A DNA stretch of 64,000 bases from Azolla caroliniana (Eukaryota; Plantae; Polypodiophyta): NCBI GenBank assembly GCA_043228905.1, contig JBHGNT010000004.1:15438001-15502000 (forward strand). The letters run 5' to 3'. The notes under the pieces are model-generated. The model searched no databases. It was given only the letters and a program-made list of their open reading frames with translations, and had not been told where the DNA came from. Shown here in pieces: positions 28,611 through 64,000 of this stretch. Positions within the stretch are counted from its first letter, which is position 1. Each line of letters begins with the position of its first letter. A program made the translations under genes and the position numbers.

Positions 28611-28649
<39 letters not shown>

Positions 28650-31044: not shown

Positions 31045-32151
31045 CTAGCCAGGAGGAGACCTATGCCGGTGCCTTTGTTGTCTATAGGTAAGAGATGGCA
31101 TTCTAGCAACTTCTTCAGGATCATGCCCATCTCTTATATTGTTCTCGTTATCCCGACTATGTTGCAAAATCTCCCCCCATAGCCCTTGTCTTGTGCGAGA
31201 AGACCCTCGAAAACGCCTGAAGACACCTCTAAAAGGTAGAAATGGCCTTGAATGTGTGGATCCAAACACTTGGAATAGTAAGAAGACGGTTAAGAGATGG
31301 CCCTCATCATCATGAGTTGAGCCATTCCCAATAAAATTCATATAGTTTTCTTCTACATTACTATCGGTATCATCATCAATGGCATAATCACCGAGAATGG
31401 TCGAATGAGGCATAGCCGAGCGAATAACACTCCATACATCACCGATGTCTCGTTGACGTTGTAGTCGTGTCCACCGACGGACACGATTGGGGTCTAGCTC
31501 AGATGGCCGTGCAAAAGGATGCTCTCTTCGGGCATGCGCACGGAGTTCAACATAAGAACCCACAAAAGAGCAAGACTCACTGGCACAAACCCTAGTTTTC
31601 TTGTCCAGATAGTGTCGTGCTTTCTTCACCACTTCCCATCCTTGCACTTGACCACGACAGAGTGGACAAAGAAGACCTGACAAATCCCGACCATTTCTAG
31701 ACAAGGTCCTAGGGAAGCTCTCTGGGTGTTGCTCCGCTGAGTTCTCCCTTCCATATGGGTCTACATTGTTGTCATGCCCACTTGAAAAGCTGGATGAAGC
31801 CACATTACCATTATTATTAGACCTTTCATGCTCACCATCTACACAAACTTTGTGAGATGCTAAGTGAGCTTTACAATACTGATCGAGGCAATTCGAGTGG
31901 CGGTAACTTGTATCGCATACATAAGTCCGACATCCTTTCTCATACGAACTACAATGGAGTAGGATTGCATTATGTGGTGTCTCCATACAAACAGGACATG
32001 TTGTGTCTTCCCACTCATTTTTCGAGGTACTTCCACTACCATCATCGACGTAGTTATTTGATGATCCATTTCCATGCCTTGAGTAAGGTTTGCGTACGTG
32101 TTCGTTTGTCTTATGAGAGAAATTATGAGACTTTCCTTTGTCTTTTGGCAT
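31045..32151 (-). CDS. DUF1644 domain-containing plant protein (368 aa from the first ATG)
   Basis: WEDTTCPVCMETPHNAILLHCSSYEKGCRTYVCDTSYRHSNCLDQY, CPLCRGQVQGW and HARREHP motifs; uninterrupted ORF. Confidence 0.93.
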   Translation of the reverse strand: MPKDKGKSHNFSHKTNEHVRKPYSRHGNGSSNNYVDDGSGSTSKNEWEDTTCPVCMETPHNAILLHCSSYEKGCRTYVCDTSYRHSNCLDQYCKAHLASHKVCVDGEHERSNNNGNVASSSFSSGHDNNVDPYGRENSAEQHPESFPRTLSRNGRDLSGLLCPLCRGQVQGWEVVKKARHYLDKKTRVCASESCSFVGSYVELRAHARREHPFARPSELDPNRVRRWTRLQRQRDIGDVWSVIRSAMPHSTILGDYAIDDDTDSNVEENYMNFIGNGSTHDDEGHLLTVFLLFQVFGSTHSRPFLPFRGVFRRFRGSSRTRQGLWGEILQHSRDNENNIRDGHDPEEVARMPSLTYRQQRHRHRSPPG

Positions 32152-33886
32152 GTTTGAGTTCTCGTGCCTTGATTTCAACTATATATATGTATGAATATAT
32201 AGAAATATATACGCATATATATAAAAGAGAGAATAGGCACAAGTATTAGACAATGCATTGGAGTAATTAGTTGCATTGACATCTCCGTGAACATCATCGT
32301 ACCTTGTTAAAAAGATTACTTGATGTCTGATTTCTCAGTTATCCGCAACCAATAACCAATGTTTGTAAAACTATACCCAATAAAGAAAACATAAACACCA
32401 AAAAGACTGGTTAGTACCTCCAACTTAAAACAATTATATTGTCATTAGACTTATGGAGGTATTTTGGTTTCCAGAGGGTAAGAGAGAATAATATGATTCT
32501 AACATGTCATGAACAGTACAGGACCAATCCTCAACAAATCATACCATCATTCCCATCTTTTTTACATAATCACAAACAGATTTACTGGCAAGGAGAAAAA
32601 GCATCTCGACTCCAGAAATTAGCCATCAAACTAACAAAACCTAGGAATTACCTATGCACAAAAAGAACGATTTTCTTCACCAGGATTTACTTATGAATAT
32701 CAAAGATAATCAGGCTTTCTAACCTTTTTTACTACAGGAATCTATGTGCTTTTTACATCATGTGAATGTAGGTCTCTCAATCAACAATGCACTTGGTGGT
32801 GCAACCTTCAGGTTACGAAGATCGTGCTAGAGAAACAGGATCCCTCGTAAGCTTGATCATGATTCATGATAGGAATCCTCGTTGGGCGGACCTGCCATTG
32901 AGGATACATTTATCCAAGTCTATTTTTTTCTAAGAGACTCCATGAATGTACAACACCTCATGTGGACATAGGTTTCCCTATGAACTATACACCCAAAAGG
33001 AGAATGAAATGACAACCTCTCAAGATTGTGACGGAACATGTTTTAATTCTTACGTTCAGTAGATTAGCTCTTAAGCGTTTTTTCCTCGGGGAAGCTTCCA
33101 TGAATGCTTTAAAGACCAATGTGTGAATACGTCTACCTATCAACTAATCATGTGGAGGATCTTGAACCTCAAAGAGTCACTACGTTCAAAATAAATGCTT
33201 TAGTTTTTGGATAAACTCCCATGAATACACAATCAACCCATGGAGAAATAGGCTTATGTAAGAGTTATACAACTGACGAGATTGACGTCAAGGTTATTAC
33301 GCGAAAAGCAATTAACTGCAATTCACCCACCATTCTTCTTTTCATGGAAACTCCATGAATACACACCCTTGAATACGTAAGTCACCTATGAACCAAAGCA
33401 CACAAGATTTAACTTGTATACACCTTGGTATTAAGATTGTTTCTGTATAACCCTTGTTACTAAGACTTTTTCTTTGAACCCACCACCACCTTAAAGCTAT
33501 GAGGTCTCATGATTTCACCTGTCTAATCGTTTCTATTCAGATCTTTCCTTCAAATTCATGTAGCAAGATGCATACACAACCTTCTAACTTGTAGAACCCT
33601 TGTTTTAAAGCTTTGTGACCTTCAACTCATGACATGAGTTATAAAAACACAAGGTTTCATTCGTATAATTGTGTTATTTCAAAGTTCCCCTGAAAAAACC
33701 TATGTGGGTTTTTATTGCAGAGAACCAAATGCAACTACAAATCTTCATTCTCACAAAAGAGACTTGAGAAAGGGCAAAACATTGCTGAAAACAAAAGAAC
33801 AAAGGCTTTCAAAGGCAACACAAACCCTAGATCTCGCAGGAACAAAACAGAGAACCCACAGATGAAGAGAGAGGGGATACACAAAC

Positions 33887-41454: not shown

Positions 41455-44400
41455 TGTCATGATATGGCAAGACTCGAACCCATAACCTTAAGTTATATGG
41501 GTTGAGCTCTTGACCATTACATTATCTATTGTAATACATAAGATATTATTTTCATTTAAGTTTTACTATAGAAAATTATTGTATATTCCAGATTTCTCTG
41601 GAACATTCTAGAAGCTTAAGGACTATTCCTGAGAACATTATAAAAAGAGGCACAAGGCATTATTTCGAACCAAATTGGTTCAATGCCAGTCTTAAGCCTC
41701 ATAGCTATTTTGTACTTACTCTTCACATTATATATCATCTGGTATCATCATCCTCTCTCTCTCACCTTCGCTATCTCTCTCTTGTGAGTCTAACGCAGTC
41801 CATCCTCTTAGTACTAATAGTACTTCCCTTCTCTAGTACTAATTCTCTCTTTGTTTTAGTACTATTCCTGACGGTTTGAACCAAAATGTCCCTCTAGTCT
41901 TCTTTTCGGTTTCCCTCATCCTCTTACCCCTTTTTCCAATACTATGGCTACTGTTAGCGCCCAGGAATATCAATCCGTTTTTTCCGAGCTACAGTGTCTA
42001 AAAGAAAAATTCGTTGCATTGGAACAAGAAAACCAACGATTGTTAGGGGATCTTCAACAAATTGCTTTAGAAAAACAGCAAACGCAGCAACAACATGGGG
42101 AGTTAGCGTTACGCATACAACAACTCAAAGCAACCATCATAGCATTACAACAACAAGGATCCAGACCCCACGGACTTCATAAAGAGCCCAAGATTGGTCT
42201 TCTTGTGAAATTCGATGGAACACGCTCACAATTCAGAGGATTCCTTAATCAAGTACGCTTAGTCATGCAAATGCATCCTTCTCGATACCCCACTGATGCA
42301 TCCCGAGTAGGCCTAATAGGCACGTTGCTTAGCGGCTCAGCCTTGGCATGGTTCGCTCCGCTTTTGGAAAAACAATCTCCCTTGCTTAATAATTTTGAAG
42401 ACTTTATTAGCGAGTTTAAAGCCCACTTTGGAGATACTGACAACATCAGGATGACGATCAACAAAATCCAACGATTGCGTCAAGGCAATCGTCCCGCCTC
42501 TACCTACGCGGCAGATTTCCGTCTACTCGCCTCAGCTATCCCCTGGGATGATCAAGTACTAATGGAGCAGTTCCGCTACGGCCTGCGAAACGATGTCAAA
42601 GATTTACTTTTAACCTTTCCCAAAAAACCAAAATCTCTTATAGAGGCAATCAGTCGAGCGGTCCGATGTGACAACCGCCTTTTCGAACGACGTTCAGAAT
42701 GTCAATTTCAAATGCCACGGACTAGGCCAGAGCCCACGTACACCTCAGTCGTAGCTAAACCGGTTGCATGAGATGTATCTCAGGCAAATACTCTGACGTT
42801 GATGGAGATCGACACCATGCGTCGACGTGGCCTGTTATGGAAGAAAAAAAGCAACGACGATGTGCAAATCGATTATGTCTTTATTGTAGTGGACTAGGGC
42901 ATATTGCCATCAACTATCCCCATAGGCCAAGAAGACAGGTAAATCAAATCGTAGCCTGTACTAAACCTGAGTCAATTCCCTTAGGAGTGTCTGATAGTAT
43001 TAATAGTACTGATAGCCCAAGTATCTCAAACAAATTTGAAATCCTTAGTCAATTAGAGGAAGAGTTAAACGACTAAGTCCAGCCAAAATAGGAACCATTT
43101 GGTTGGACATCCCTAGATCTGTGCAGCCCATTAGTGGTTCCATTCCCTCTAAGCAAGTTAGCAATGTGTTCTTAGCCCAAGTCATGATTAGTACTAAAAG
43201 TACCCCTCCAGTACATGTCTTAGCACTTTTAGATTCCGGAGCCAATTCTTGTTTCATGGATTGGAATTTTGCCCAAGCTTCTTAGATATCCTTAAGAAAA
43301 CCTCCTTGCCCCGCATCTATAGTAGTCATTGATGGTCATCCCATTGCTTCTGGGAATATCGTAGAAGAGTCAGAACCCATTCAGGTTGTCCTAGATAGCT
43401 TTGTGTGTGTGGTATCATTTAATATAATTAGTAGTCTAGAGCATCCCATTGTCCTGGGATTACCTTGGTTTGAAGTACATAATCCAGACATAGATTGGAG
43501 AACAAGAGAAGTTCGGTATCGACAACCACGAGAATCTACTCATCGAGTTTTGACCATTTTGCTCCATCAATTACGTGAAGAAGGATGCAAGGAGTCAATG
43601 TTCCTATTTGCAATATCAATACATCCTTCCAGCACTATTAAAAAGGAATCCTTAGTTCAACTTCCTACGAAATATCATCCTTATGCCGATGTATTTGACA
43701 AGGTCAGAGCTAGTACTCTTCCTCATCATCATCCCTATGATTGTCCCATCGATTTACAACCAGGAATAGAGCCACCGTGGGGACCGATTTACAACTTGTC
43801 ACCAACCGAGTTGGAAGTCCTTCAAGCCTACATAGAAGAGAATTTGGCAAGCGGGTTTATTTGTCAATCGAAATCTCCGGCTGGTGCACCCATTTTCTTT
43901 GTCAAAAAGAAAGATGGATCCCTTCGTCTCGTCGTTGATTACCACAGCTTGAATAAGCTCACCATTCGAAATAGGTATGCACTTCCCCTTATATCAAGTC
44001 TATTAGAACGTGTAAATGGTGCCAAGTTTTTTACAAAAATCGACTTACAAGGAAGGAGTATATAACCCTGTGCAGATCTGATCGGGAGACAAATGGAAGA
44101 CCGCTTTTCGCACCCGATATGGGCACTTCGAGTATACTGTTATGTCGTTCGGTCTAACCAATGTGCCCGCAGTCTTCCAGCACATGGCAAGTGATAGATT
44201 CAGAGATCTCTTGGATATCTGTTTGATCATCTACCTGGATGATTTATAGATTTATTCGAAGACCCAAGAAGAGCATGATTCTCATGTACTATTAGTACTA
44301 AAACGACTCCGAGAGCATGGTCTTTATGCCAAACTAGAAAAATGTAGCTTTGATTGCAAGCAAGTGGAATTTCTAGGCTACGTCATCTCCTCAAAAGGCA

Positions 44401-45502: not shown

Positions 45503-47621
45503 TGTTGAAATGTATGTGCGGAAGCAATAGAAAACAAAAAATAGAAAACAGGTTTAATGGAGAGCTTTACAGTACGCGGGAGAGACAGAGAGAGTAGAAC
45601 GTTTTAATCTATTACGAAACAATAATAGTTCTCTGTACATGAAACGTGCTCAACATCACTATTTATACAAGTCCTGAGAGGACTAACAGAAGTACTGCGT
45701 ACTTCAATGCTCACTCGAGTGTCTGGCACTGACTACGAGACTATTAACTCCCAAGTAGTCTAACTGCTACTAGGCTTCCGGTTACTGATGGATCCAGCTA
45801 ACCGGCTCCCCAGCTCACCGGCTCACTTGCTCACTAGGTCACCGATCCGGCTCATCCTTCCGGATGCCAATCCGGCTCAGGCTTATTCAGCCGATCTGGA
45901 TCCGGTTGAGCTTGCCACTCAACACTCCCCCTCAAGCTCAACTTGAGGTCCGGTTGTAGTGTCAACGTATGTGGCAACCGGTCCTTCTACCCGGCTCCTT
46001 CTAGCGTCACTCCAGCTCGCTTGCGCTCCTAGTTCGGTCCGGTCCCATTTGCCGCGACCCTTCTGTTCCTGCGCACCTCGACCTCCTCGGTCGGCTTGTC
46101 TGCTCAACAGGCCCAATTAAGCTTCCTTGCTGTTGTGACTTCGACTCTTGCCGATTCGCCGATCCCTTCGTGTAGACTTTCGCTGCCTTCTTGTCCTCTT
46201 GGCCTTGAATTGATCCGGTTCTTCAGAATCCTTCTGTAGAACTGAATCGATTGTCTCTGATTCGTTCTAGCTCTTGTCCGAATCGGTTGCTCCCGATTCG
46301 TCTTCCGGTTCCAGGCCCTTCACCACATCGGACCATGTCCGGGTCTTGGCCTTCTTCTTCCGGTCGGCTCTGTCCTTCTTGACTCTGGCTCCGCTGCCGC
46401 TTGTTCCGACTTGTTCGGATGTGTCAAATTCCTTTGTCGACTTGGCTCCTTTCTTCTTCTTGTCTCTCCCCTTGTCGGTTCTTCCCTCATCAGCGCAGTC
46501 AACAGTCTCTTTGCCTTTGCTCGTTCCGGTGGTGTCTTTGCCCATTCTCCCCCTCAAGTGTGGCACGTTGAGATGCTGAACACCAAACATTTCGGTGAAG
46601 TGCTGCAACTTGTCCGATCTGAGTGGTTTGGTGAAGATGTCGGCAACTTGCCGATCCGTATGAACATGCCGAAGTTCGACTTCACCGCTCAGGACACGCT
46701 CACGCAAGAAGTGGTAGTGCAGTTCAATGTGCTTTGTGCGAGCATGGAATACAGGGTTCTTAGCGAGCTACATGCTACTTATGTTATCGCAATAGATTAG
46801 GATCGGGGTCGGCACCTCAATCCGCAGTTCTTGTAGCAGTCGCCGAAGCCAAATGGCTTCACAGGTGGCAATGGTAGCGCCCCGGTACTCAGCCTCAGTG
46901 CTCGAAAGGGCCACTGTTGGCTGCTTTTTGCTGCTCCACGCAACAGCCACGCTCCCAAGGGAAACATATAGCCGGAGGTGGATCGGCGATCCGATGCATC
47001 GCCGGCCCAGTCGACATTAGTGTAGCCAACTAGCTCTTCGGTTATACCGTGCCGGTATAACAGTCCCCGTTCCTTCGTGCCGCTCACATATTGCAAAATT
47101 CGATGCGCGCACTGAAGATGTTCTACTGTCGGCTTTTGCATGAATTGGCTAATCACACCGACCGGATAGCTGACGTTGTCGTGAAGATCCGTCACTACGC
47201 GCGGATCGTGAGGCGGAACCGCCGGGGTTCTGGACCGGAAGGATTCAAAGTTGATACAAGCTTTGGCGAGAAAGTACTTAAGATAGATTGGGAAAGAGAG
47301 AAGTTGAGATTAAACGATTGAGAAAGATTGATTGAACTTTTATCTTTGGATTTAAGAAACAAGTTACACCATCAATTTGATAACGAATTTCTTCTTCTTA
47401 ATTTCATAATAAAAACCGTTTTTTCTCTCCCCCCTTCCCTCTTTTATAGATGCTCTCATGCATATGATGCATGTGAGGGTACAAGACATGCATAAATTGC
47501 ATGTTTGCCATTTGGCGCTTAAGTATTACATGTGGTGCATGATAACCATGTCACTCATTTTAGCTCTCATGTATGAGAATTTACATGTAAAAGTACAATG
47601 ATAGAAATATAATTTCAACTA

Positions 47622-47693
47622 AATAGCATGGCTTAATGGTAAGCCAATTGACTCCTAACTTGGAGGTGCAAGGTTTGAATCCTTACTTGCCCT
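47622..47693 (+). other. tRNA-like cassette in LTR U3 (antisense to the element)
   Basis: TGGCTTAATGGTAAGCC D-arm/A-box; CTCCTAA loop; AAGG-TTTGAAT-CCTT T-arm/B-box. Second copy at 61779-61850. Confidence 0.65.
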
Positions 47694-48931
47694 CCTTGTA
47701 TATGTAAATATGTATATATATTTATATATTTATTTATCTAATCGCCGGACGCTAGTTCGCCGGATACCATCGTCGGTTACTGGTGCATCGCCGGTTACCG
47801 GTGCCGGATGCCATCGCCGGATCACCGGCTCCATCGCCGGTCCGGTTTTGGTTGGCCAAAACCCTTTACGAGTAGCTAGCCCACCTTCACTCTTAGTTCA
47901 AGTTACCTTGAACTCTCTATGCTCCACACATAGACACAAAGATAATATCTTTTGCTCCACCTTATATATGATGAGAGCTGTATTTGTCGTGCCTATGTGG
48001 GATATCTCACAATTTTCTCTTTTCCTTTCACAAACTTTATACCCTCATATCTTGACATTTAGTTGTCCGTTGTCGAGTTTTTACGCAAGTGCGTGTGGAA
48101 TCGAGGCGGGACCGCGGGGGTCTCGAACCGAAGAGCAAGCGAGGGAGGAGAAAGAGAGAGAACCGGCTACGCAGGACCGGGAATACACAGGGACACGGCC
48201 CTTCAGCACGGAGAACGCGAACGAACACCGACACAGACAGATGCGAATGACTAAATATATATATCAAGAATGGCTAACACGACTACAACCCTCGATGGGG
48301 CACAGGTTGGTTACAACCGAGCAGGCCGGCGAACAGATGCCGATGCCTGTTCACTTCGACGCACAAGGGGGTAGCCGGTCGGAGGTGCTGCCGGAAGCAC
48401 TCGGGCGTTCCTCGAGACAGCGCAAGCCTCCTCGGAACCCTGCACAGAAAGCTATGGAGCTCAAGAAGGAAGGAGACAGAGAGAGAAGCGTCCAGAAACG
48501 GTCCGGCAGCACTTCGTCCTCTCTGCGCCAGCCCCCGCAACAGCTCTTTCCCCGCTCTTATATAGTCCGACGAGCAGGCCTTCATGTCAGCTTTATTCCC
48601 TGTCCCTTTCGAACAGGGATCCGCTCCGTTCTTCACGCATCCGCGTAGTTACGCCGCCGACTCGTGCCGTCCTTTAGCTCGCGCGCGCGCTCGAAAGGAT
48701 TGTTCGCGCGGTCTTTGTCTCCACTTGTGTTAGGGCCCGTTCCCGCCGACTATCCTCCTAATTCGCTTCTACGTACAACTCGGAGCGTGCGCGCGTGAAG
48801 AACCGGTTCCCACGCCTTGGTGCGCCCGATTCCTCTTGTGGGCGGTTTTCTTCACGACATCCGCCCCCACCTAACCGCGCATCCACCGGCATGCGCCAAA
48901 TTAAGTTGGCACGGAGAAAACCGGCCCGCCT

Positions 48932-51900
48932 TTACTCTTCGCCTGCCGGCCCTTCCTCGGCCTCGGATCGGTCGTCGCTGCTGTCCAGGAGAATCGGGTC
49001 GGGTTCGTCGTCGTGCCGCTTCTTGAAAGCTTTGATCCTCTTCCCGGCCACGGGTATCGCTATTCTCGTACCGTCGAGTTCCGCCAGGTGATACGTCCCG
49101 TTGTCGTTGGCGCTCTGTACCGTGTACGGCCCGAACCATCTCCGTGCGAACTTCCTTGTTGCTCGGTGCTGGTTGTCGAGGCTGCTGTCGTAGACGAGCA
49201 CCCAGTCACCTTCGTCGATTTTCTTCGGTCGTAGCCGGTGCGTTCGGTCGAACCGGGCTTTGTTCTTCGTCCTCGCCACCCGGAGCTTCTCCGTAGCCAG
49301 TGCCACGTCCTCCGGTCTCCGCTCGAGCTGTCGTATACGTGCGGCCAACAACTCCTCCCGGCTCATCTCGTCCCGCCAGTCGACCGTTGCCCACGAGGAG
49401 ATCGTTCGTTCAATCGGCATGATCGGCTTCTGGCCGAACATGAGCTCCGTCGGCATGTACCCGGTTACCGAACTGTGCGTGGTCCGGTCTGCCCACAAAG
49501 CATAAGGTAGAAGTCGCGGCCAGTTGCCGACTTGGCCTCCGCATGCCCGAACCAGCGCCTTAACGATCGGCCCGTGTCCGCGCTCCACCTTTCCATTCGC
49601 CTCCGGGTTGTACGCTGTGGTGAGCGAGAGTTTGACTCCAAGCCGGTCGAACAGCTCCGCGGCCTCTTCGGCGTCCAACTCCCCTCGGTCAGCCACGATC
49701 TTCCCGACGCACCCGTACCGGCATATCACGTCCTCGACTAGGAACCGACACACGGCCGCGGTCGTCTTGTTCTGAAGGGCTCGGCCTTCCACCTGGTTCG
49801 TCAGGTCTTCCCGCGCTAGGACCAGATACCGCATCTGTCCTACCCCCATCGGCATCGTCACCAGATCTACCATCCATTTGAAGTGGATAGTCGGAGGGTA
49901 CGTAGGGTGAAGCCCGTCCCGGTGTCGGACTATCGAGTGCATCTGACAACTCTCGCAAGTTGACACGAACCGATGCACGTCCCGGTACAATCCCGGCCAC
50001 CAGTACTTTCCCTTCAGCTTCTCAAACGTCGCCCACGTTCCACGGTGTCCAGCCCAAGGGCCGTCGTGGTAGGCCGCCAGTAGCTCCTCCTGTACTTCCT
50101 TCATCGCCACCACTCGGAGCGGGACGCCGTCCCTCTTCTTCGGGTGCTTCCATAGATGCCCATCTCGGAGAAAGAATCGATATGCTTTCTTCCGGATCCG
50201 GTTGGCCTCGTCCTTCGTCCATGACGCATCGGGCGTCATTGTCTTCAAAAACCCGCCGATCTGCAGCCACTCCCCGTCGTACTTGCTCGCGTCGAACTCG
50301 TTAAGCGCCGGAGTGCTCATCCCGTCGGTCGTTATGTATGCCGCCTCGAAGAAATCCACGCCGACTTCTTCGTCTTCCGAAACCATGCCGCCCTCGTCGT
50401 CGAACCTCGCCCTCGAAAGCATGTCGGCCATGGCGTTGTCTTTCCCGGAAATGTGTCGTATTTCCGGGTCCAGGGACTTGATGTACGCTATCCACCTGAG
50501 CATCGCCAGGTCCGGAGTCGCGCATCCGGAAACCATACCGAGAATCGGCAGGCAATCCGTCTCGATGATCACTTCCGTCCCTATCAGGTAGTCTTTGTCG
50601 GCCTTAACCGCCGAAACAATACCCCAGAGTTCGCGTTTAACCTGGGCGTATCCTCGCTGCCGTTCACTGAGGACTTTCGCGCCGAATCGGATCGGAAACC
50701 GATTGCCGTCCTCGTCTTCCTGGTTCACGACCCATCCGATCCCGGTCGAACTGGTATCCACCGTTATGAATACCGGGGTACCCTTCCCGTAAACCGCCTT
50801 CCGGATTGCCGGTGCCGTTGCAAGGGCCTCTTTCAGCTTCCGGACCGATTCCGCGTGCTTGTCTAGCCATTCGAACCTTCGCCCCTTTTTCAGCAACCCG
50901 TACAGCGGCTCCGCGAGGTGTGCGTAATGCGGGATCCATATGTGGTAGAACGCGCATGCCCCCAGGAATCTCCGTACTTCCGTGACCGAGCTGCAGTCGG
51001 GCTTCATCGCGGAGATGGCTTCTACCTTTGCCGGAGACGGTTTCCGGCCATATGGTCCGCACAGGTGTCCGACCACCATGATTTCTGACTGCCCGAAGGC
51101 CGACTTCTCCCCGGAGAAGGTGAGTCTCGCATCCTCTAGCCTTTGCAGCACCTTCTCGCAGTCGTCGATGTGCGTCGCCACGAATCGCCGGCATCCGTCC
51201 GGCCCGATCGTCTCGTCCTTTTCTTCCACCGGGCATCCCTTGATCGGGATGTCGTCCAGAAACGGCATGGTGATGTCCGGGATACAGTCCCTCAGAACCT
51301 TGTTCATCGCATTCACCATGTGGGCCACCGAGTTGGTCCCTCCTTGCGGCAGTGTACACATCCGAACTAGGCCGAGGGGAGTTCGCATCGTCGTAATGTC
51401 TCTGCTCTCCACGGCTAGCTGGAACTGGTCGTACCCTGAGTATAGATCCCCGACCGAGTAAATTGACCTTCCGGCGAAGGCCTCCGCGAACTCGTCTATG
51501 GTCGGTCCGATCCCTGCGTTCCGAATGGTCACTCGATTGACCGGCTGCAGGTCCTGGATGAAGCGCAACGAACCGTTTTTCTTCGGTACCGTAAACCAGC
51601 GGTTTGAATACGGGGCGCTCGATGGCTCGAGAATGCCCATATCAACCTTCTGCCTCAGCAGCTCCATCAACTTCGGGATGTGAGCTCTCGGAACCGGGAT
51701 TGGCTTGAGATTCCATGGTACATGCGGTACCGTGAATATCACCATCGGCTCCACGATCCTCGGGTCAACGCACCCGATTTCCTCCGGCGAGAATGCGAAG
51801 GCTTTCCCGTGCCTTCCGAGCATTCTCCGAAACCGGTCTTCCTCCGCCGGCAGTAGGAACCCGCCCCCACCGATTTTGAGCTCTCGGAGCGTCCCGTCAG

Positions 51901-52160
51901 TGAAGGTGTGCCCTATGCAGGCCGGATCTCGTAGACTAGGGTCCGATGCAACCCCTTTGATTCTCGACGCGCTGTCCTCCGGTAAGGGTGCCGCTACTGG
52001 CCTTACCTTCCGGTCCACAGTCTTGTACTTGGTGTTTACGTGGGCCGTCCGAACTGACTCGAGCCCTCGACCGAAGTCCGCGATGACTTCGTACATCTCC
52101 TCGGAACACACCGGTATCGTCCGGTCTTCGTTAAGGCCTTCTTCGACTACCTTTCCCAGC
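48932..52160 (-). CDS. Gypsy Pol (RT-RNase H-integrase), open for >1050 codons
   Basis: LPQGG, FLDD, RNase H (TVDTS, ETDC), HHCC, ADRGE, GPY; no chromodomain. Confidence 0.92.
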
Positions 52161-52408
52161 TCCCAAGGTGTCGTCGAAGGAGACTGCCTCCACGGCTCCG
52201 TTGATCCCTTCGTCAGGGCCGAGAACTCCGCACGCCCGAAGTCTCCCCTCCGTCCTTGTTTTCTCTCGGCCGGTGATGCCGACCATCGTGCATGCTCCGC
52301 TGTCGGAGAAGCAAAATTTCCTACCTAGTGTACACGGTTTTATCGTACAGATGTGGGGTTTTTCCGGAGCATCCGGACTGTCGCGGCCCCACGCCTTGGC
52401 AGTCCTCT

Positions 52409-54535
52409 CTAAAAATCCTCTCGGTTTTCGGAACCGAGGGAATCGCGGTTACGTTCGTGGTTCGGCCTTACCGTCAGAAACTGGACCGAATGGCGCCCGT
52501 CTTGGCTTTTGACCCTAGCGTAGGCCGAACCATTGTCCAGCACTTTGGTCTCCATTCGCGCCGCCGTGATGTACGGCTCTCCCAGAATGACCGGATGCGA
52601 AGACGTCTCCTGCACGAAGAAGTGCTGGTCAATCTCGACGTCGCCAATCTTGACTCGCACATCCGGACAGGCCCCGTGCAGTTCCTCGGTGGCGCGCGTT
52701 GCTGCCCTTATTTTCCACCCGTGCTTGGTGTTGATCGGCCATTTGCCCTTCTTATAGAAGTCCATGGACATCAAATTGATCTCCGATCCGTGGTCCACCA
52801 AAGCTATCACCGGTTCCCGGACATCGCCGATCTTCACCGGGGTCTCCGTGGTCGCTCGGGCCCAGTGTGGTCTCGAATAGTGGCTTTCTGCCCACTCGTC
52901 TCCCAGCGCCATGTCGTCTAGGTGCGTCGTCCGCACTTCCACCGGTCTTTCCGGTTCTGTCTCCGTCGACAGCCTCTTCCGTTTCACCAAGTCCACGATG
53001 GAGTCGTGGAACTCCTTCTTGGCGATTCCCAGCACCTCTCGTAACGACAGCTCCACCTTGCTGTCGAGGATCCGTTCCTCCAGGACCTTTCGTAAGTCCG
53101 TGGTCCTTTCTATCTCCGTCCCCAGACGGTACCCGCCCTTCTGGGGTTTATCTTGCGTGCCGGCCCCGCCGGCTTCGTCCCGTCGTGGCCCGGACCGGGT
53201 CTCGTATCGTTGTGAGGGACCGGTCGTCCCAGGTCTCCCCACCCGCTTCTCTTCTACCAGAGCCTCGTAGTTCTGGCAAGCGGCTTCCACGAAGCCCGTC
53301 CTTTCCTCGACCGGGTCGCTCCACCCGGTCATCTCCCGTACCCGTTTCTCCGCACGGTCCGATTCCTCCCCTTTTAGCCTTGCACCGGCAAGGCCTTCCA
53401 GCATCGTCGGCCAGAATCCGGCTTTGCTTTCCCTTCGGGCCTCGCCACCCCCGACTCGAATGCCGGCCGACGCCGAGTAGTGGACGGTTTCCGCGTGCCG
53501 GGCCGCCGCCTCTTCCGTCAACCTTTTCATACCACCTTTTCCGTCGTTTCGGCTCAGGGCCCTTCGGGTGTCGCTGGCATGCACCCGTCCTTCCCACAGG
53601 TACACCACCCCGTTCCTCAGCGCCTCCGCGAAGTCGCCGCAGTCCTTCCGAATGTGGCCGACTTCATCGCACCACATGCACCTGTTTCCTGCCGCCGGCC
53701 GTCGGTCGCGAGCCGGTTCGCCTCCTTCCCTTCGGGCCTGCGCGATTTGGAGGTCCTTTATCGCCTTCGTCAATTCCTCCAGCGCCGCTCCTCCGGTTGA
53801 GCCTCTGACTACGCCGGTCGAAGCCGAACCGGTTTCCAACCACTCCCGGGTCTCTTCCTTGCGCACCTGTGGCGCTGGTTCGAGCTTCCTTGCTGCGACC
53901 GAGCCCGACCCGGTCGCCCCGTTATCCGCCCATTCTCGCCGTTTGTCGAAACGGCCACAGACTTTCTTGACAGCCGCCCAGTCGGTAGTGAGCCCGTCTT
54001 CAGTTTCCAGCAAGAGGCCCACGTGCTCCCGATCCCGCTCGTCGACCGACTTGACAAACAGCAAGACCCGGCTCGTGTCCAGGATGGTTCGGTCGAGCGC
54101 CGAAAGGCGCGCAAAGTTTTCCTCGAACTCCCGGAGGAGCGCCGACGCGTTTCTTCCCTTCCCCGGGGACTCCACCCATTCCATGAACCTTCGCTTCGAA
54201 AGCCGGAGCGCGTCGTCCAGCCCGTATTTCTCTAGGAGCCGACCTTCGAACTTCTCCCAGGTACGGCTCTCCGCCCGCACCTCGAGCACCTCCGCATGGA
54301 TGCTCGGCATTGCCACTCGGGGAAATCCGGCAAGACGCCTTTCTTCCGGAATGTCCCGCATCAGCATCTCTGCACCGTAGGACGCCAAATACTTCGTGGC
54401 ATGCTTCCCATCGAACCGGCCGATCGTGCCGACGACCGCCTCAATAGCTCTGTCGAGGGCACCGGTGCCCTCGCGCGCGTTTACAATCCGATCCACGGCC
54501 GAAGCCATGGCCTCCGCAAGATCCGACCCCCTCAT
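52409..54535 (-). CDS. Gypsy Gag-protease ORF
   Basis: CMWCDEVGHIRKDC zinc knuckle; ALVDHGSEIN protease-like motif; ILGEPY; ends EDF*. Confidence 0.9.
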   Translation of the reverse strand: MRGSDLAEAMASAVDRIVNAREGTGALDRAIEAVVGTIGRFDGKHATKYLASYGAEMLMRDIPEERRLAGFPRVAMPSIHAEVLEVRAESRTWEKFEGRLLEKYGLDDALRLSKRRFMEWVESPGKGRNASALLREFEENFARLSALDRTILDTSRVLLFVKSVDERDREHVGLLLETEDGLTTDWAAVKKVCGRFDKRREWADNGATGSGSVAARKLEPAPQVRKEETREWLETGSASTGVVRGSTGGAALEELTKAIKDLQIAQARREGGEPARDRRPAAGNRCMWCDEVGHIRKDCGDFAEALRNGVVYLWEGRVHASDTRRALSRNDGKGGMKRLTEEAAARHAETVHYSASAGIRVGGGEARRESKAGFWPTMLEGLAGARLKGEESDRAEKRVREMTGWSDPVEERTGFVEAACQNYEALVEEKRVGRPGTTGPSQRYETRSGPRRDEAGGAGTQDKPQKGGYRLGTEIERTTDLRKVLEERILDSKVELSLREVLGIAKKEFHDSIVDLVKRKRLSTETEPERPVEVRTTHLDDMALGDEWAESHYSRPHWARATTETPVKIGDVREPVIALVDHGSEINLMSMDFYKKGKWPINTKHGWKIRAATRATEELHGACPDVRVKIGDVEIDQHFFVQETSSHPVILGEPYITAARMETKVLDNGSAYARVKSQDGRHSVQFLTVRPNHERNRDSLGSENREDF

Positions 54536-55603
54536 CTTCTGCTCTTCTGCCGCCTCTTTCACGTCGGGTTCACCAAAGATGTCGAGTTTTTACGCAAGTG
54601 CGTGTGGAATCGAGGCGGGACCGCGGGGGTCTCGAACCGAAGAGCAAGCGAGGGAGGAGAAAGAGAGAGAACCGGCTACGCAGGACCGGGAATACACAGG
54701 GACACGGCCCTTCAGCACGGAGAACGCGAACGAACACCGACACAGACAGATGCGAATGACTAAATATATATATCAAGAATGGCTAACACGACTACAACCC
54801 TCGATGGGGCACAGGTTGGTTACAACCGAGCAGGCCGGCGAACAGATGCCGATGCCTGTTCACTTCGACGCACAAGGGGGTAGCCGGTCGGAGGTGCTGC
54901 CGGAAGCACTCGGGCGTTCCTCGAGACAGCGCAAGCCTCCTCGGAACCCTGCACAGAAAGCTATGGAGCTCAAGAAGGAAGGAGACAGAGAGAGAAGCGT
55001 CCAGAAACGGTCCGGCAGCACTTCGTCCTCTCTGCGCCAGCCCCCGCAACAGCTCTTTCCCCGCTCTTATATAGTCCGACGAGCAGGCCTTCATGTCAGC
55101 TTTATTCCCTGTCCCTTTCGAACAGGGATCCGCTCCGTTCTTCACGCATCCGCGTAGTTACGCCGCCGACTCGTGCCGTCCTTTAGCTCGCGCGCGCGCT
55201 CGAAAGGATTGTTCGCGCGGTCTTTGTCTCCACTTGTGTTAGGGCCCGTTCCCGCCGACTATCCTCCTAATTCGCTTCTACGTACAACTCGGAGCGTGCG
55301 CGCGTGAAGAACCGGTTCCCACGCCTTGGTGCGCCCGATTCCTCTTGTGGGCGGTTTTCTTCACGACACCGTTTCTCGTGTAATAAAGTGCATTCGAAAC
55401 CTCCATCATTTTGTACTTAGATATTAAATCTATTTAAAATGTTATCTTCACAATTATTGTACTATGTGATTCATACTCGATTTCGTACGTTTTATGGGAT
55501 TTTCACACTATTGCAGAAAATCTTCACGACATGCACCCCCACCAAACCGCACGTCCTCCGGTACGTGCCAAGAAGAGAAGAAGTGAGATTTTGGCTACGA
55601 TGA

Positions 55604-58600
55604 TCAATTAGATTCCTCCATGTCTTCATTTTCATCCGGCCTATTATGTTCATCGTCGAGGTAATCGAGGTCAGGATCCTTGTCTTGTCTTTTCTTGAAA
55701 AGCTTTACTCTTTTTCCCGCAATGGGTACGGCCAACCTTGATCCGTTTAGTTCCGCAAGGTGGTATGTGGCATTATCGTTGGCACTTGTCACCACATACG
55801 GCCCGAACCATCTTCTTGCGAACTTCCTTGTTGTACTGTGTTGATTGTCAAGGGTGCTGTCGTAAACCAAAACCCAATCCCCTTCTTCAATCTTCTTGGG
55901 ACGAAGTCGATGCGTGTTGTCGAACCGAACTTCGTTCTTTACTCGGGCTGCCTTCATCATCTTTCGCGCTTTTTCTAAATCTTCAGGTCTTCTTTCAAGT
56001 TGCCTTATCCGCGCCGCTAATAACTCTTCTCGGCTCATCTCGTTCTCCCACGGTATCGCTACCCATGAGGCGATCGTCCTTTCGATGGGCATAATCGGCT
56101 TTTGTCCATACATAAGCTCCGTCGGCATATACCTTGTCACCGAGCTATGTGTCGTTCTATCGGCCCATAAGGCATAGGGTAATAGTCGTGGCCAATTCCC
56201 GACTCGACCGTTGCATGCCCGTACGATGGCTTTAACGATAGGTCCATGCCCTCGCTCGATCTTCCCATTTGCTTCCGGATTGTAGGCAGTCGTGAGGGAG
56301 AGCTTCACGCCTAGTCTTTCGAAGAGCTCCGTCGCTTCGTGCGCATCCAACTCCCCTCGGTCGGCCACTATCTTCCCTACACATCCATATCGGCAAACAA
56401 CATCTTCAAGTAGAAATTTGCAAACGGCTGAAGTCGTCTTATTTGTCAAGGCTCGTCCTTCCACTTGATTTGTCAAGTCTTCCCTTGCCAACGCTAAGTA
56501 GTTCATTTGTCCCACTCCCATTGGCATCGAGACTAGATCCACCATCCATTTGAAGTGTATGGTGAGTGGGTATGTCGGCTTTAACTCATCACGATGACGT
56601 ATATTTGAATATACTTGGCAAGTTTCGCATGTGGACACGAAATGGAGTACATCTTTGTACATGCTTGGCCACCAGTACTTCTCCTTCAACTTTTCGAACG
56701 TTGCCCATGTTCCTCTATGACCTGCCCAAGCACTCTCGTGGAATTCGGTCATCAGCGTCTCTTGCTCTTCTTTCTTTACCACCACTCGTCGTGGTATTCC
56801 TGTCCTTCTTTTTGGATGTCGCCAAAGGAATCCTCCCTTCAAGAAGTATTGGTAAGCTTTCTTTCGGATTCATAGGGCCTCCTCCTTTGTCAATGAAGCA
56901 TCTGTCGTCAATGTTCTTAGGAATCTACCGATGAGTAACCACTCTCCTTCGTACTCGTTCTCGTTGAAGGCGTGGAGGGTTTGCGTGTCCTGGTCTTCCG
57001 CCGACAATCAAGCCATCTTGAAGAAGTCGAGGGCGACATCTTAATCTTCCGAAACCATGTTACTTCCGTTTGAAAATCTTGCCCTCGACAGCATGTCAGC
57101 CATGGCGTTCTTCTTCTCTGCAATGTGACGGATCTCTGGGTTTAAAGACTTGATGTAGGCGATCCACCTTAGCATAGCAAGATCTGGGGTCGCACATCCC
57201 GAGACCATTCCGAGAATTGGGAGACAATCTGTCTCTATTATCACTTCTGACCCGATCAAGTAATCTTTGTCCGTCTTCACTGCCGACACAATACCCCAAA
57301 GTTCCCGCTTGACTTGGGCATATCTTTGTTGCCGTTCGCTGAGAACCTTTGCTCCGAACCGGACGGCATATCGCGCATTATCTTCACCTTCTTGATTGAT
57401 GACCCACCTGATTCCGGTTGGGCTCGTATCTACAGTCACGTAAATTGGCTTCCCTTCGGCATAGTCGGCCTTCCTTAGTGCCGGAGCTTCAAGAAGCAGT
57501 TTCTTTAATCTTCGCATCGCCTTTGTGTGCTCGTCTCGCCATTTGAACTTTATTCTTTTCTTTAGTAGTCCATATAACGGTTCGACGACATGAGCGTAGT
57601 GAGGAATCCATATATGATAAAACGCGCACGCTCCAAGGAACCTTCGAACCACCGTTTGGTTTTTGCATTCTTCTTTCATGTCTTGGATTGCGTTCACTTT
57701 GGATGGCGAGGGCTTCCGGCCGTATGCTCCACACAAGTGACCTACCACCAAGATCTCCGGTTGCCGGAATGCGGATTTTTCTCCCGAAAATGTCAAATTC
57801 GCATCTTCGAGCCTTTGAAGCACCTTCTCGCAATCTTTCATATGATCCACAACGAACTTTCTACAACCTTCCTTATCTTTCGATTCATCTTTCTCCTCAT
57901 CCGAACATCCTTTTATTGGAATATCATCCAAGAATGGCATCGTGATGTCCGGAATGCAATCCTTCAAGACTTTATTCATGGCATTCACCATATGAGCCAC
58001 CGAGTTCGTTGCGCCTTGGGGTAAGGTACACATCCGCACAAGCCCGATCGGAGTCCTCATGGTTGTGATGTCCCGAATGTCGATCGCCAATTGGAATTGG
58101 TCATATCCGGAGTAGAGATCGCCAATGGAGTAGATGGACCGGCCCGCAAACGCTTCGGCAAATTCGTCCACGCTCGGACCGATTCCGGCATTTCGAATTG
58201 TCACCTTGTTGACGGGTTGAAGATCTTGGATGAATCGCAATGATCCATTCTTCTCCGGCACCGTGAACCACCTATTGGAATAAGGAGCATTCGACGGTTC
58301 TAGAATTCCCATACTCACCTTCTCCTTTAAGAGCTCGATCAGCTTCGGAAGGTGTGCTCTCGGTACCAGTATCGGTTTCAAATTCCAAGACACATGAGGC
58401 ACCGTGAAGATCACCATCGGCTCTATAACCTTTGGGTCGGCGCATCCGATTTCTCGTGGGAAGAATGCGAAAGCCTTCCCATGTCTCTCAAGCATATCGC
58501 GAAATATTCGCTCCTCTTCAGGGAGAAGGAAATCCTCCTTTCCAACTCGTAGCTTCCCCTTCGTCTCTTTGGTGAAGACATGACCTATCTTCTTCGGATC

Positions 58601-59092
58601 TCTTAAGCTTGGATCGTTAGCGACTTCCTTCATCTTTTGCCAGCTATCTTCTGGTAGCGGAACCGCAACTGGCTTGATCTTCTTATCCACCGTTTTATAT
58701 TTCGTGTTGATGTCAGCTTCCTTCATCGAGATGCCACGACGGTATTCATCGATGATAGCGTACATGTTGATGGAGTTAACCGAAATCACGCGTTGGTTGT
58801 GAAGATAGCTCAAGTCCAGGACGTCCTCGATTTCGCCGATGGTGTCGTTAAATGAGGCTTCTTCCATAATATGAGTCACGAACTCTCCTTCTTCTATTAT
58901 ATTCTCTTCTTTCAGCATCTTCTCGAATTCTTGTATCCGGCGCTTGTGCTTCTTGTCGGGTAGTACTAGTTTACATGCGCCACTAGGTGTGACACATGTT
59001 GCTTCTCCTTGCAATCCATGCACTCTTCTTTCTTGTGGGGTCTTGTGATTGCTCGGACTATTTGTGCCCCATGCTTCAATAGTCCGCTCTAA
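55604..59092 (-). pseudogene. Element B pol (RT-RH-INT), disrupted near 56850-57040
   Basis: ORFs 57041-59023 and 55604-56842 are highly similar to element A Pol. Confidence 0.9.
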
Positions 59093-61288
59093 AAATCCGA
59101 GGATTCGCCTCCGAGACTATCTCGATTCCTTTCATGATTGGCTCGCACTGTTAGGAATTGGACTGATCTTTGGTTGTCAAGACTCTTTATTCGTGCGAAG
59201 GCTGCTCCATTATCGAACACTTTGGTCTCCATCCGAGATGATGTGATATAAGGTTGCCCTAGGATGACAGGATGCGACGCCGATTCTTGTACGAAGAAGT
59301 GTTGATCCATCTCCACATCCCCGATCGTGACTTTGACATTGGGACAAGCTCCGTACAAATCCTCCGTAGACTTTTTGCCGCGCGAATCTTCCATCCGTGG
59401 TTTGTAATTGGCCATCTTCCTTTTTTGTAGAAGTCGGTTGACATGAGGTTGATCTCCGAGCCGTGGTCGATCAAGGCTACCACGGTTTCTTTCTTCTCCC
59501 CGATCTTCACCGGCGTCTCCGTTGTCGCTCGTGCCCAATGAGGTCGAGTGTAGTGGCTGTCCACCATATCTTCATCGATTTCGTCTCTTGCCATCGTTAT
59601 GACATTCGTTTTTGCTTTTTGCGGCTTCTCTTCTTCCTCGTCCGATTGTTGTCTCTTTCTCTTTACAAGGTCCACGATCGTGTCATGGAACTCCTTCTTC
59701 GTAATGCCAAGCAATTCCCTCAAGGACAAAGTTACGTGGCTATCAAGAACTCGTTCTTCGAGAATCTTCTTTAGGTCCGTCGTCTGCTCTATGTCTGACC
59801 TTAGCTTGTAGGTAGGTATAGTCCTTGTCCTCCGAGCGGGGTCTTCGACACCAACCTTCACGGGCCGAACCGTTTCTTCAACTCGTATGCTCGGCTCCCC
59901 TTTTCGGCTTGATTCTCGTTCCTCCGTTTGTAAAGGTCGACTCGTCTCCGCATCGTCCTTCTTTTTCGCATTCCTTGTTTCATGTCTTTTTGATGGCCCT
60001 TGCTCTTCTATTCTCTTTCTCTTTTCTTCGACGAACACCTCGTGGTTGTCGCACATCACCTCTACGAGTATGGTGTTGTCGTCCACCGGATCCGACCACC
60101 CGGTTATGCTTTGCATGCTTCGGTCCGCAAGCTCTACCTCGTTCGATGTGATTTTTCCCTTCTTCTCATATTCGAGAACGGAAGTCCAAAACTTTGCTCC
60201 CGCTCTAGCAGCTTCAGTCTTGTCTTTCCCGACTCTTATTCCGGCCGACGCAGCATAGTGCATCGCATCCACATGAGTCGCATCGACATCCTCCATAGAT
60301 TTCTTCATTCCTCCTCTTCCGAAATTCACCCGTAGGGGTCTTCTAGTCTCGCTTGAGCAGATCATGTTGTCCTCTATGTATACAATATTTTGTCGAATCG
60401 CCTCTCGAAGGCTCACACAATCCCTTCTCATGTGGTCCATGCTATCGCACCACACGCATCTAAAGGGTTCTTTTCCCTTAGGGCCCCGACGATTCATGTT
60501 GGCTAGTGTGACCTTCTCGAACTTCTTCGCTAGCTCTTCAATGATGTCGTCATCAATCTTCTTTTCTTCCACGTTACTTTCTCTTGGCGGCTCAGCTACT
60601 TTCGGCGGTCTTGCTTTCTCCGTGGTAGTCGGTCCCGTCAAGTCGGTGTCATCAACCCATTGGCGATGCTTGTCAAGCCCATTGCATGCCCACTTCACCG
60701 CGATCCAGTCCGCTACGAGCCCATTTGCTTGGGTATCATCTTCGAGAAGAGTCCCCAACTCCCGTCTATCCTTTATGTCCACGGCCTTCAAGAAGTACAA
60801 AGTCTTGTCCTCTTCAAGCAACACTTGGTCCGTGTTGGGGAGACGACTAAACATCTGGTCGAATTCGTCGTACACCCTCGAGACGCTCATCTTCTTATTC
60901 TTCTTCTCTATCCACTTCATCAGGGCATGTCGGGTCATCCTCGTTGAGTCTTCAGTCACGAACTCCACTAGTATCGTTTTCTCGAACTCGGACCATGTTG
61001 TCTTACCTTCTTGAAGCTCGATGACGCGTCTTTGGATGTTGTTGGCGACAACTCTCTTGAAGCTTGCGATTTGACGTGCCTCGGACACGTCCCTCTGATT
61101 CATCTCCCTTCTATATGCATCAAGGAACTTCGTAACGTTCCTTCCATCGAATTGGCGTCGAGCTCTACGACACGATCGACAACCTTCTCCACGCTCGCGT
61201 CATTGTCCCGAGATCTCATCATTTGCTCGACGATTAGCATCATCCTTTCGAGCTCTCCCGCTTGGTTGCTTGAGGACGCCATCTCCAA
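59089..61288 (-). pseudogene. Element B gag-protease with two frameshifts
   Basis: CVWCDSMDHMRRDC; ALIDHGSEIN; ends SDF*. Confidence 0.9.
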
Positions 61289-64000
61289 GTATTAATCTCG
61301 ACTTGATCCTTCCTACCGCCTCTTTCACGTCGGGTTCACCACTATATTATGTTGTGAAGATTCGTCACTACGCGCGGATCGTGAGGCAGAACCGCCGGGG
61401 TTCTGGACCGGAAGGATTCAAAGTTGATACAAGCTTTGGCGAGATTGGGAAAGAGAGAAGTTGAGATTAAACGATTGAGAAAGATTGATTGAACTTTTAT
61501 CTTTGGATTTAAGAAACAAGTTACACCATCAATTTGATAACGAATTTCTTCTTCTTAATTTCATAATAAAAACCGTTTTTTCTCTCCCCCCTTCCCTCTT
61601 TTATAGATGCTCTCATGCATATGATGCATGTGAGGGTACAAGACATGCATAAATTGCATGTTTGCCATTTGGCGCTTAAGTATTACATGTGGTGCATGAT
61701 AACCATGTCACTCATTTTAGCTCTCATGTATGAGAATTTACATGTAAAAGTACAATGATAGAAATATAATTTCAACTAAATAGCATGGCTTAATGGTAAG
61801 CCAATTGACTCCTAACTTGGAGGTGCAAGGTTTGAATCCTTACTTGCCCTCCTTGTATATGTAAATATGTATATATATTTATATATTTATTTATCTAATC
61901 GCCGGACGCTAGTTCGCCGGATACCATCGTCGGTTACTGGTGCATCGCCGGTTACCGGTGCCGGATGCCATCGCCGGATCACCGGCTCCATCGCCGGTCC
62001 GGTTTTGGTTGGCCAAAACCCTTTACGAGTAGCTAGCCCACCTTCACTCTTAGTTCAAGTTACCTTGAACTCTCTATGCTCCACACATAGACACAAAGAT
62101 AATATCTTTTGCTCCACCTTATATATGATGAGAGCTGTATTTGTCGTGCCTATGTGGGATATCTCACAATTTTCTCTTTTCCTTTCACAAACTTTATACC
62201 CTCATATCTTGACATTTAGTTGTCCGTTTCTCGTGTAATAAAGTGCATTCGAAACCTCCATCATTTTGTACTTAGATATTAAGTCTATTTAAAATGTTAT
62301 CTTCACAATTATTGTACTATGTGATTCATACTCGATTTCGTACGTTTTATGGGATTTTCACACTATTGCAGAAAATCTTCACGACAACGTCGGGTCGGGT
62401 GATGGTCAAATATATAAGGCTTCCGACAATTTGTTGGAACCGTTTCTCATCGCAGGCCGGTCCGGAGTTGGGACAAAGCTTCTTGTTTCGGTCCAAGGGT
62501 GTTGGGACAGGTCGGCATTCTGTCATGCCAAACTTGTACAGCATATTCAACACATAGTGTCTTTGTGAGAGCAATATGCCATCGGGGGTTCGGATCACCT
62601 CGATCCCAAGGAAATAGTGAAGGTCCCCTAGGTCCTTCATCTCAAATGCATCCAATAGCTGGGACATGACTCGACTGATTTCATCGAGTCCGAGTCCGGT
62701 GATGACCAGATCATCAACATACAACAAGATGCAAACCAGACCGTCTAGTCCTTGCCGGATGAACAATGAAGAGTCAGATTTGGAGGCCACAAACCCCATC
62801 TTACGCAACCGGTGCGTGCTCTTTGAATTCCAAGCTCGGGGGGCTTGCTTCAGGCCATAAAGTGACTTCTTCAGCCAACATATCGCCGACTTGTTCATCT
62901 CCGACTAAAAACCAAGGGGTTGGGTCATAAAGACCTCTTCTTTAAGATCACCTTGAAGAAATGTATTCTTCATGTCCATTTCATGAAGATGCCGCCCCCT
63001 TGCCGCAGCAACCGCTAGCACCACACGAACTGTCGTCATCTTCGCTACCGGAGCGAAGGTCTCGTCGTAGTTTATTCCGTGGGTTTGCGCGTATCCCTTC
63101 GCCACTAACCAAGCCTTGTATCGGTTAACTGAACCGTCGGCGTTGTACTTTACCTTGTACACGCACTTGCATCCGATCAGTTTCAGTGACGGGGAGGGTC
63201 AACCAGGTCCCATGTGTCGTTGGCATCAAGTGCCCGCATCTCTTCCTGCATAGCGGCATGCCAATTTGCGTCCCTTACCGCTTCTCTATAGCTCTCTGGT
63301 TCACGCACTTCCGCCACCTTGGTCATGTACGCATAGTGATGCACCATGTACTCATTGTACCCGTGCCGCTTAACATGTTCCTTTTGCCAGGTTGATCGGC
63401 ATAACCCATTGTTACCCGGTTTGGGGCCCTTCTTGGCCGGGTCAGTCTTTGTTGCTGAAGAACCACCATTTTCCTTTCCGGAGTCGGATCCGCTCCGATC
63501 TGACTCAACATTACCGGTTTCATAATCCGACATCTTCGTCTTCCCCTTCTCTTTGCACGTGAACCGTCTCCTCGGTTCCTTACACGGGGAGAGCAGGACA
63601 GAGTCTGCACTACTCGCTGGTTCCTCATCTGACTGGTCGGATTGACCCAGTCTCTCGTTCGGCTCACTCAACTGAAACGATTCCGGACTCTCTTCTTGAG
63701 TCCCGGATTCATCATCTTCTACTTGGGCCGGTTCAGGCTCACTAGCCTCATCTTCTGACATCGGGTTGGGGTCGGAAGTCGGAGTTGGTAAGGAATACCA
63801 TGATGCTGTTTCATTGAACTCGACATCGCGGCTAACTCAGATCTACTTCGTCTCGGGGTTATAACACTTATACCCCCTTTGCTCATGTGAGTAGCCGACG
63901 AGGATGCACTTCTCTGATTTTGCATCCAGCTTCCTCCGCTTCTCATCCGGCACATGCACATATGCTATGCTGCCGAATATCCGAAGGTGTCTCAGATTCG

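Follow-up and report, generated by a model that had tools for sequence, protein, structure and literature searches.

An LTR retrotransposon in the 64,000-nucleotide stretch of DNA analysed here (the window, part of a 523-Mb eukaryote assembly) carries Gag and protease in one ORF that closes before reverse transcriptase (RT), which raises the question of how its pol region is reached by ribosomes. This element, A, is the innermost of three nested levels, as it lies within the 3' LTR of a second element, B, and B lies within Ty1/copia-like sequence (46545-47176 and 62387-64000). The features of A and B are given in Table 1. The domain order Gag-PR-RT-RH-IN between the LTRs places A in Ty3/gypsy, and Pfam searches of A identified RVT_1, one RNase H region, Integrase_H2C2 and rve only, with no match to a chromodomain or an extra RNase H. 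Aspartyl-protease look-alike clusters were found for a homologue of ORF1, and close relatives of the protease are Physcomitrium proteins (approximately 65-71% identity).

Target-site duplications of the form NCGN flank A (ACGG), B (ACGT) and most of the fetched full-length relatives with an LTR pair, and a tRNA-Trp gene with the 3' end matching the primer binding site is present in the host genome. NCGN duplications and priming by tRNA-Trp are the marks listed for the Phygy clade (Neumann et al., 2019; PMC6317226, supplementary table 5), and A agrees with Phygy as characterized there in its 4-bp NCGN duplication, tRNA-Trp primer and lack of a chromodomain match; its interior is also filled by the coding region, as in Phygy. 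By target duplication, primer site and domain content, A is classified as a Phygy-type element. With 7.3 kb (7298 bp) A is shorter than the range of 7656-9968 bp given for Phygy, in a character that the same source considers of little value for classification (PMC6317226); B is approximately 7.9 kb and a sister family, described below, 7.9-8.0 kb long. RLG1 was rejected as a candidate for the counterpart in P. patens, as it has a chromodomain (PMC7466625).

Table 1. Positions of element A, its predicted frameshift cassette and element B in the window
Feature	Position	Strand	Remarks
Element B	47177-62386		ACGT duplication; A inserted in 3' LTR of B
Element A, Phygy-type Ty3/gypsy	48071-55368 (48067-55372 with target duplication)	-	7298 bp
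5' LTR of A	54580-55368	-	789 bp; 0 differences from 3' LTR
3' LTR of A	48071-48859	-	789 bp; same as 5' LTR
Target-site duplication ACGG (NCGN) of A	55369-55372; second copy 48067-48070	-	flanking sequence
Primer binding site of A	54558-54575	-	18 nt complementary to tRNA-Trp 3' end including CCA
ORF1 of A: Gag (CCHC-like motif, DUF4100 match) and protease (DHGS motif)	52409-54535	-	uninterrupted; ends Glu-Asp-Phe-stop
Slippery heptamer G_GAU_UUU of A (GGATTTT)	52412-52418	-	in frame with ORF1
Spacer	52406-52411	-	6 nt; starts with ORF1 stop codon; ungapped alignment A2
Stem 1, 5' strand (predicted)	52398-52405	-	contains GGACTG, 52405-52400
Stem 1, 3' strand (predicted)	52375-52382	-	contains CAGTCC, 52380-52375
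Stem 2, 5' strand GUGGGG (predicted)	52387-52392	-	in the loop
Stem 2, 3' strand CCCCAC (predicted)	52353-52358	-	
Competing hairpin UCCGGA/UCCGGA (predicted)	52363-52377	-	ViennaRNA minimum-energy fold; takes last 3 nt of stem 1
-1 frame of A	52131-52418	-	95 codons, then stop owing to gap
Private 2-nt gap	between 52161 and 52160	-	severs pol from frameshift in A
Remaining pol of A: linker end, RT, RNase H, integrase	48932-52160	-	no other break
Cassette homologue in element B	59033-59098	-	heptamer 59098-59092; heptamer and stop in 29/29 B siblings

The window holds several other features. Two inverted Ty1/copia copies, 85% alike, occupy 3-4207 and 11321-16978; the latter has LTRs of 386 bp that are 97% identical, and the sequence hosting B is approximately 72% like it. 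A MULE transposase fragment (27777-28832), a DUF1644 gene (31045-32178) and a Ty3-type gag of another lineage (41872-42771) are also present. RNA runs cover only small shares of the window. Element B is itself broken: compared to 29/29 siblings, 1 nt is missing near 59374 and 3 nt near 59406 (minus strand), and its pol is disrupted past RNase H (56870-57043, minus strand). A small hairpin precedes the 3' G-rich tract in A (48877-48896 and 48860-48876, minus strand), in B (near 55532-55570) and in L187, L204 and L206, and it varies in step between A (GCGCAU/AUGCGC), B (GCACGU/ACGUGC) and the sister family (GCACAU/AUGUGC). The tract contains several pyrimidines, and no copy of tRNA-Arg was apparent when inspected by eye.

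At the end of ORF1, a preliminary description of the locus had placed a slippery heptamer, a spacer, a stem and a loop motif complementary to a downstream segment, and all of these coordinates proved right in the sequence. The genome contains 1150 matches to GATTTTTAG-N2-5-GGAC versus 55 for a reversed control, and the motif is thus not a chance occurrence. The stem of 6 pairs proposed at first is correct in sequence and too short in extent, since stem 1 spans 8 pairs across the lineage; the loop of this stem is predicted to pair downstream, forming an H-type pseudoknot. The compensatory change described for A, with G-C where B has A-T, was recovered at columns 22:42 of alignment A2, where G-C occurs in 1/36 families, G-U in 3 and A-U in 29. 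Pair 8, C-G in A and U-A in B, is a second double change between the two elements, and pair 7 is a C-A mismatch in A.

In the nested minimum-energy fold of A, stem 2 and the competing hairpin, which lies in loop 3, form in place of stem 1 (-18.3 kcal/mol versus approximately -7.9 kcal/mol for stem 1 on its own; z = -0.6). This speaks against a simple picture of the cassette, in a comparison that covers nested folds only as pseudoknots are beyond ViennaRNA scoring. Arms related to those of the competing hairpin were recognized by eye in five relatives within the A subclade (L002, L064, L073, L075, and L078), with a double change in L073, and a two-state RNA element in this subclade is possible. 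Outside the cassette the divergence between A and B is as strong as had been noted: blastn aligned only 48992-51823 (70.6%) and 52518-52888 (72.8%), and neither the LTRs nor the linker gave a match at E 1e-10.

The -1 frame of A reads GFLERTAKAWGRDSP from the cassette and passes EAVSFDDTLG, remaining open for slightly longer than the roughly 90 codons first reported, after which the RT homology moves to frame 0. This had been attributed to a separate deletion of about 2 nt near 52162, and the gap was confirmed and its exact place identified: all 29 siblings (the closest fetched of 40 scored, from 2960 candidates) have 2 more nucleotides at this junction. Genome-wide counts of the exact junction gave 1 occurrence of the gapped form, A itself, versus 198 of the longer form. 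A frame shared between A and its siblings had been named beforehand as the result that would speak against a single -1 shift. None of the 29 siblings has the frame of A; in all of them the -1 frame is open from the heptamer and contains RT, and therefore no second mechanism is needed to explain how pol is reached. Either A is defective or the assembly is locally wrong; the gap itself is an ordinary one.

An error in the assembly, with the copy intact in the plant, is the less likely of these origins. The LTRs of A are identical (0/789), both of its ORFs are otherwise open, and the gapped junction was bridged by none of the contigs listed for four runs (28 of 64 pieces shown); because contigs drop rare variants, however, a contig survey that lacks the gapped junction cannot show its absence. 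On the other hand, the gap lies outside any homopolymer or dinucleotide repeat, and A has 7 private substitutions in 3.5 kb, 6 of which fall on the first or second base of a codon, the pattern to be expected when a copy is free of selection. The non-repetitive context and the private substitutions lean to a real defective copy, whereas the identical LTRs lean in the opposite direction.

To describe the frame layout across the lineage, a profile built from 33 proteins was used to collect 80 metagenome loci, to which 90 loci of the host genome were added, and the frames were scored. One assembly series accounts for 77 of the 80 loci from metagenomes, so that their hosts are not independent. RT was present in 67 of these loci (13 had no RT match) and in 61 of the 67 it was found in a -1 frame that is already open ahead of the heptamer; the other six consisted of two -1 loci with a stop or mis-call, two broken loci and two loci that were open in +1. 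In the host genome, RT was in an open -1 frame in 29/30 loci of family A, the single miss being A itself, in 28/30 of family B and in 29/30 of a third family. The three full-length siblings of A (3/3) have an ORF1 of at least 725 codons and 1157-1163 open -1 codons. In the overlapping layout, the -1 frame always starts upstream of the heptamer, in some families just 10 nt before the ORF1 stop.

Protease and RT are separated by a poorly conserved linker of 341-446 nt. Such a linker could be spliced out, as the region between protease and RT is in Ogre, which shares the split between Gag-protease and RT and has a proven intron (PMC6317226, section 13). The linker, however, is stop-free in the -1 frame in the 61/67 metagenome loci and rich in stops in the other two frames, with 176 and 277 stops in frames 0 and +1 in 28 families that were selected by their open -1 frame. 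Linker variants common to at least two copies favor the third codon position as read in the -1 frame (10 vs 3 and 4, 10 vs 4 and 4, and 26 vs 17 and 18 at the other positions). An open -1 frame with third-position bias does not agree with a non-coding intron of the Ogre type, and splicing would not require a heptamer that is in frame and keeps a set distance to a stem. Splicing is therefore highly improbable.

Internal initiation or re-initiation at an AUG of pol itself, with the conserved structure acting as an initiation or packaging element, was considered as well. A Met precedes RT in every long -1 frame, and a conserved structure could serve packaging or dimerisation. The first Met, however, occurs anywhere from codon 3 to codon 111, and neither the start of the -1 frame, invariably upstream of the heptamer, nor the fixed heptamer phase and spacer fits this explanation, which we consider highly improbable.

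Loci with the heptamer and enough flanking sequence were clustered at 88% identity into 36 families, which align ungapped through stem 1 (alignment A2). The heptamer of the 36 family representatives is GGATTTT in 30, GGATTTC in 2, GGGTTTT in 1, GGTTTTC in 1 and GGTTTTT in 2, and the spacer is 6 nt long in 34/36 families and 5 nt in the two families with pol in the +1/-2 frame. In stem 1, 95.8% of 288 cells are paired, compared to 23-45% in slid controls. The covariation looked for across the lineage since the preliminary description is found in this stem, with double changes at 6/8 pairs over the 36 families; 27 cells have double changes versus 7.6 in shuffles (0/500). The loop of stem 2 varies between 9 and 17 nt, and one column of the stem has U-A, C-G and G-C pairs. 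The strands of stem 2 paired better with their own partner than with swapped partners (16.3 vs 13.6; 0/20000 permutations) in a window picked after loop lengths were seen, and the shuffle and permutation tests on both stems ignore the relatedness of the families. Family by family, stem 2 reached p <= 0.05 in only 14/36 families in shuffles of the downstream 30 nt (A, p 0.25).

Mean pairwise identity is 0.93 in the heptamer, 0.73 and 0.77 in stem 1 and 0.69 in the 5' strand of stem 2, compared to 0.31 in the protease tail, 0.36-0.42 in the loops and 0.30 beyond the signal; as stems 1 and 2 overlap the pol frame, protein constraint adds to their conservation. The argument that retention of the signal means function is strong across the 36 families and weak for A taken alone, because A is young and may simply have inherited its signal. 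A search of Rfam matched no family on the cassette strand and gave one match on the opposite strand (E 3.2).

The conserved ending of ORF1 is also visible at protein level. Among 165 homologous proteins, 79 end with Asp-Phe-stop, 34 with Asp/Gly-Phe plus 5 residues, 3 with Gly/Asn-Phe and 2 with Val-Phe-X (118 in total); the remaining 47 lack an anchor, are truncated or run-on gene models, or fall into none of these groups. Those ending with Asp/Gly-Phe include named proteins of Physcomitrium, Riccia and Adiantum, so that the wider relatives proposed for comparison were reached for moss, liverwort and fern, at protein level only, and no lycophyte name occurs among the homologues. Distant representatives with an Asp/Asn/Gly-Phe ending (P0217, P0223, P0246, P0268, and P0275) were found among 33 listed. 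Atlas look-alike protein clusters are mostly from Basidiomycota, and no relatives were found in viral contigs. In one subclade (P0002, P0040, P0081, and P0113; L127, L128, and L135) ORF1 ends 5 residues past the slip site with Val/Met-Pro-Leu-stop, as the gag frame here continues through the 5' strand of stem 1.

A stop codon followed by a pseudoknot recalls gammaretroviral readthrough. Readthrough of the stop, or slippage of the polymerase on the U run, could join the frames without ribosomal frameshifting; the RT of A itself is in frame 0, and a single stop splits Gag-protease and RT in Retand (PMC6317226). Against readthrough, frame 0 of A stems from the private gap and has further stops, the RT of the siblings is in the -1 frame, and the stop is either variable (15 UAG, 9 UAA, and 5 UGA) or located further downstream (7/36 families). 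Against polymerase slippage, the families with G_GAU_UUC have a U run of only three. We regard both as extremely improbable.

We conclude, with a probability of about 0.9, that these Phygy-type elements encode Gag-protease and RT-RNase H-integrase in overlapping frames that are joined by -1 frameshifting at G_GAU_UUU, aided by the predicted pseudoknot. A has an accepted heptamer of the G_GA type in frame, a spacer of 6 nt, within the usual 5-9 nt (PMC7618472), and a predicted 3' structure; the downstream ORF overlapping in -1 is present in siblings and relatives and is broken in A. G_GA-type sites and G_GAU_UUU are known shift sites of plant viruses (PMC5009743), and a point against the proposed slip is that re-pairing of G_GAU in the P site is imperfect. 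From these sequences we infer the slip, its efficiency and the formation of the pseudoknot in vivo. The pseudoknot 6 nt ahead would stall a ribosome whose P and A sites hold GAU and UUU, and the slip to GGA UUU would result in the junction Asp-Phe-Leu-Glu-Arg. Most ribosomes would stop one codon later, after Asp-Phe, and release Gag-protease, whereas a minority would slip back one base and read through a linker of about 120-130 residues into RT. Capsid and protease would thereby exceed RT and integrase. Alpharetroviruses likewise have protease in the gag frame ahead of the shift, and the predicted pseudoknot resembles those of retroviruses.

Ogre and Retand of the Tat clade have their break between Gag-protease and RT-RH-IN, as A does, and differ in how it is crossed: Ogre uses an intron and Retand has a single in-frame stop, whereas here a -1 overlap is found with a slippery site and a predicted pseudoknot (PMC6317226). 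The heptamer G_GAU_UUU is shared with pea enation mosaic virus RNA 2, and umbra- and dianthoviruses combine G_GA sites with a nearby stop, a short spacer and a 3' structure as seen here; the stimulators described for these plant viruses consist of a stem-loop with long-range pairing, whereas a compact local pseudoknot is predicted in Phygy (PMC5009743). According to the same 2016 review, pol was in +1 in those plant elements with separate frames that were known at the time (PMC5009743). Neumann et al. (2019; PMC6317226) give ND for the ORF layout of Phygy and treat the clade as restricted to P. patens, and the REXdb table of that paper has no lineage with Gag-protease overlapping RT. No description of the cassette in Phygy was found in the open-access literature searched. 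The parts of the cassette are thus classical, while its setting at the Phygy protease-RT junction appears to be undescribed within the literature searched.

The two families with a 5-nt spacer represent a sister family with another layout. In these metagenome families (L112 and L121, approximately 80% identical to each other) pol is open in the +1 (= -2) frame for more than 800 codons, ORF1 ends with Gln-Val-Phe-Asp/Tyr at AG_GUU_UUU, and the predicted pseudoknot is kept 5 nt downstream. The sister family is also present in the host genome (L172-L203), where its motif has 99 matches versus 0 for the control. Among 15 copies, protease is in frame 0 in 15/15 and RT in +1/-2 in 12/15. Seventeen full-length stretches, 8 of them picked as open-looking or earlier high-scoring, include 9 with LTR pairs at 99.3-100% identity and 4 with both ORFs uninterrupted (739 and 1154 codons). 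The near-identical LTRs and intact ORFs indicate that the sister clade spread recently with the +1/-2 layout. In a midpoint-rooted RT tree of 22/36 families, L112 and L121 share a single branch (100/100), the other 20 families having the -1 layout, and the nearest neighbor of this branch (87/89) is a -1 family. The +1/-2 layout is therefore likely to be derived, as judged from this midpoint-rooted tree without an outgroup.

In the sister family, a -2 shift is more likely than +1. AG_GUU_UUU is identical to the -2/-1 site of PRRSV nsp2TF, and the -1 frame stops at once in most sister copies, as it does in PRRSV (PMC7618472, PMC5009743); the PRRSV site has no RNA structure and needs proteins, whereas the sister family keeps the predicted pseudoknot. 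A spacer shortened by 1-2 nt favored -2 in reporters (Lin, Gilbert and Brierley, 2012; PMC3458567), a rule demonstrated on a U6A heptamer, and the sister spacer is 1 nt shorter, in the -2 direction. A +1 shift at the stop would lack both re-pairing and a spacer; a +1 slip on UUU, or splicing at the preceding CAG/G, is a less likely alternative. Two successive -1 slips were rejected, as the -1 frame has a stop within 2 codons in 13/15 copies. We consider it somewhat more probable than the contrary that Phygy gates RT and integrase by pseudoknot-driven frameshifting after protease, and that a recently active clade switched from -1 to -2 when its gag frame moved by one base, with the same pseudoknot, AG_GUU_UUU and a spacer of 5 instead of 6 nt.

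For Phygy, the -1 cassette fills the 'not determined' entry for pol expression and is a candidate -1 signal of plant LTR retrotransposons that shows covariation across the lineage. For annotators it means that such two-ORF copies are not broken. The two layouts form a matched natural pair in one genome, in which one predicted pseudoknot is combined with a 6-nt spacer in one layout and a 5-nt spacer in the other, and the frame that is required differs. Natural cases of -2 frameshifting on record are few (phage Mu, arteriviruses, and Trichomonas virus 1). If the switch to -2 is true, the sister family would represent a natural -2 frameshift that is driven by RNA structure and required for replication of the element, and would offer a natural test of the spacer-tension model.
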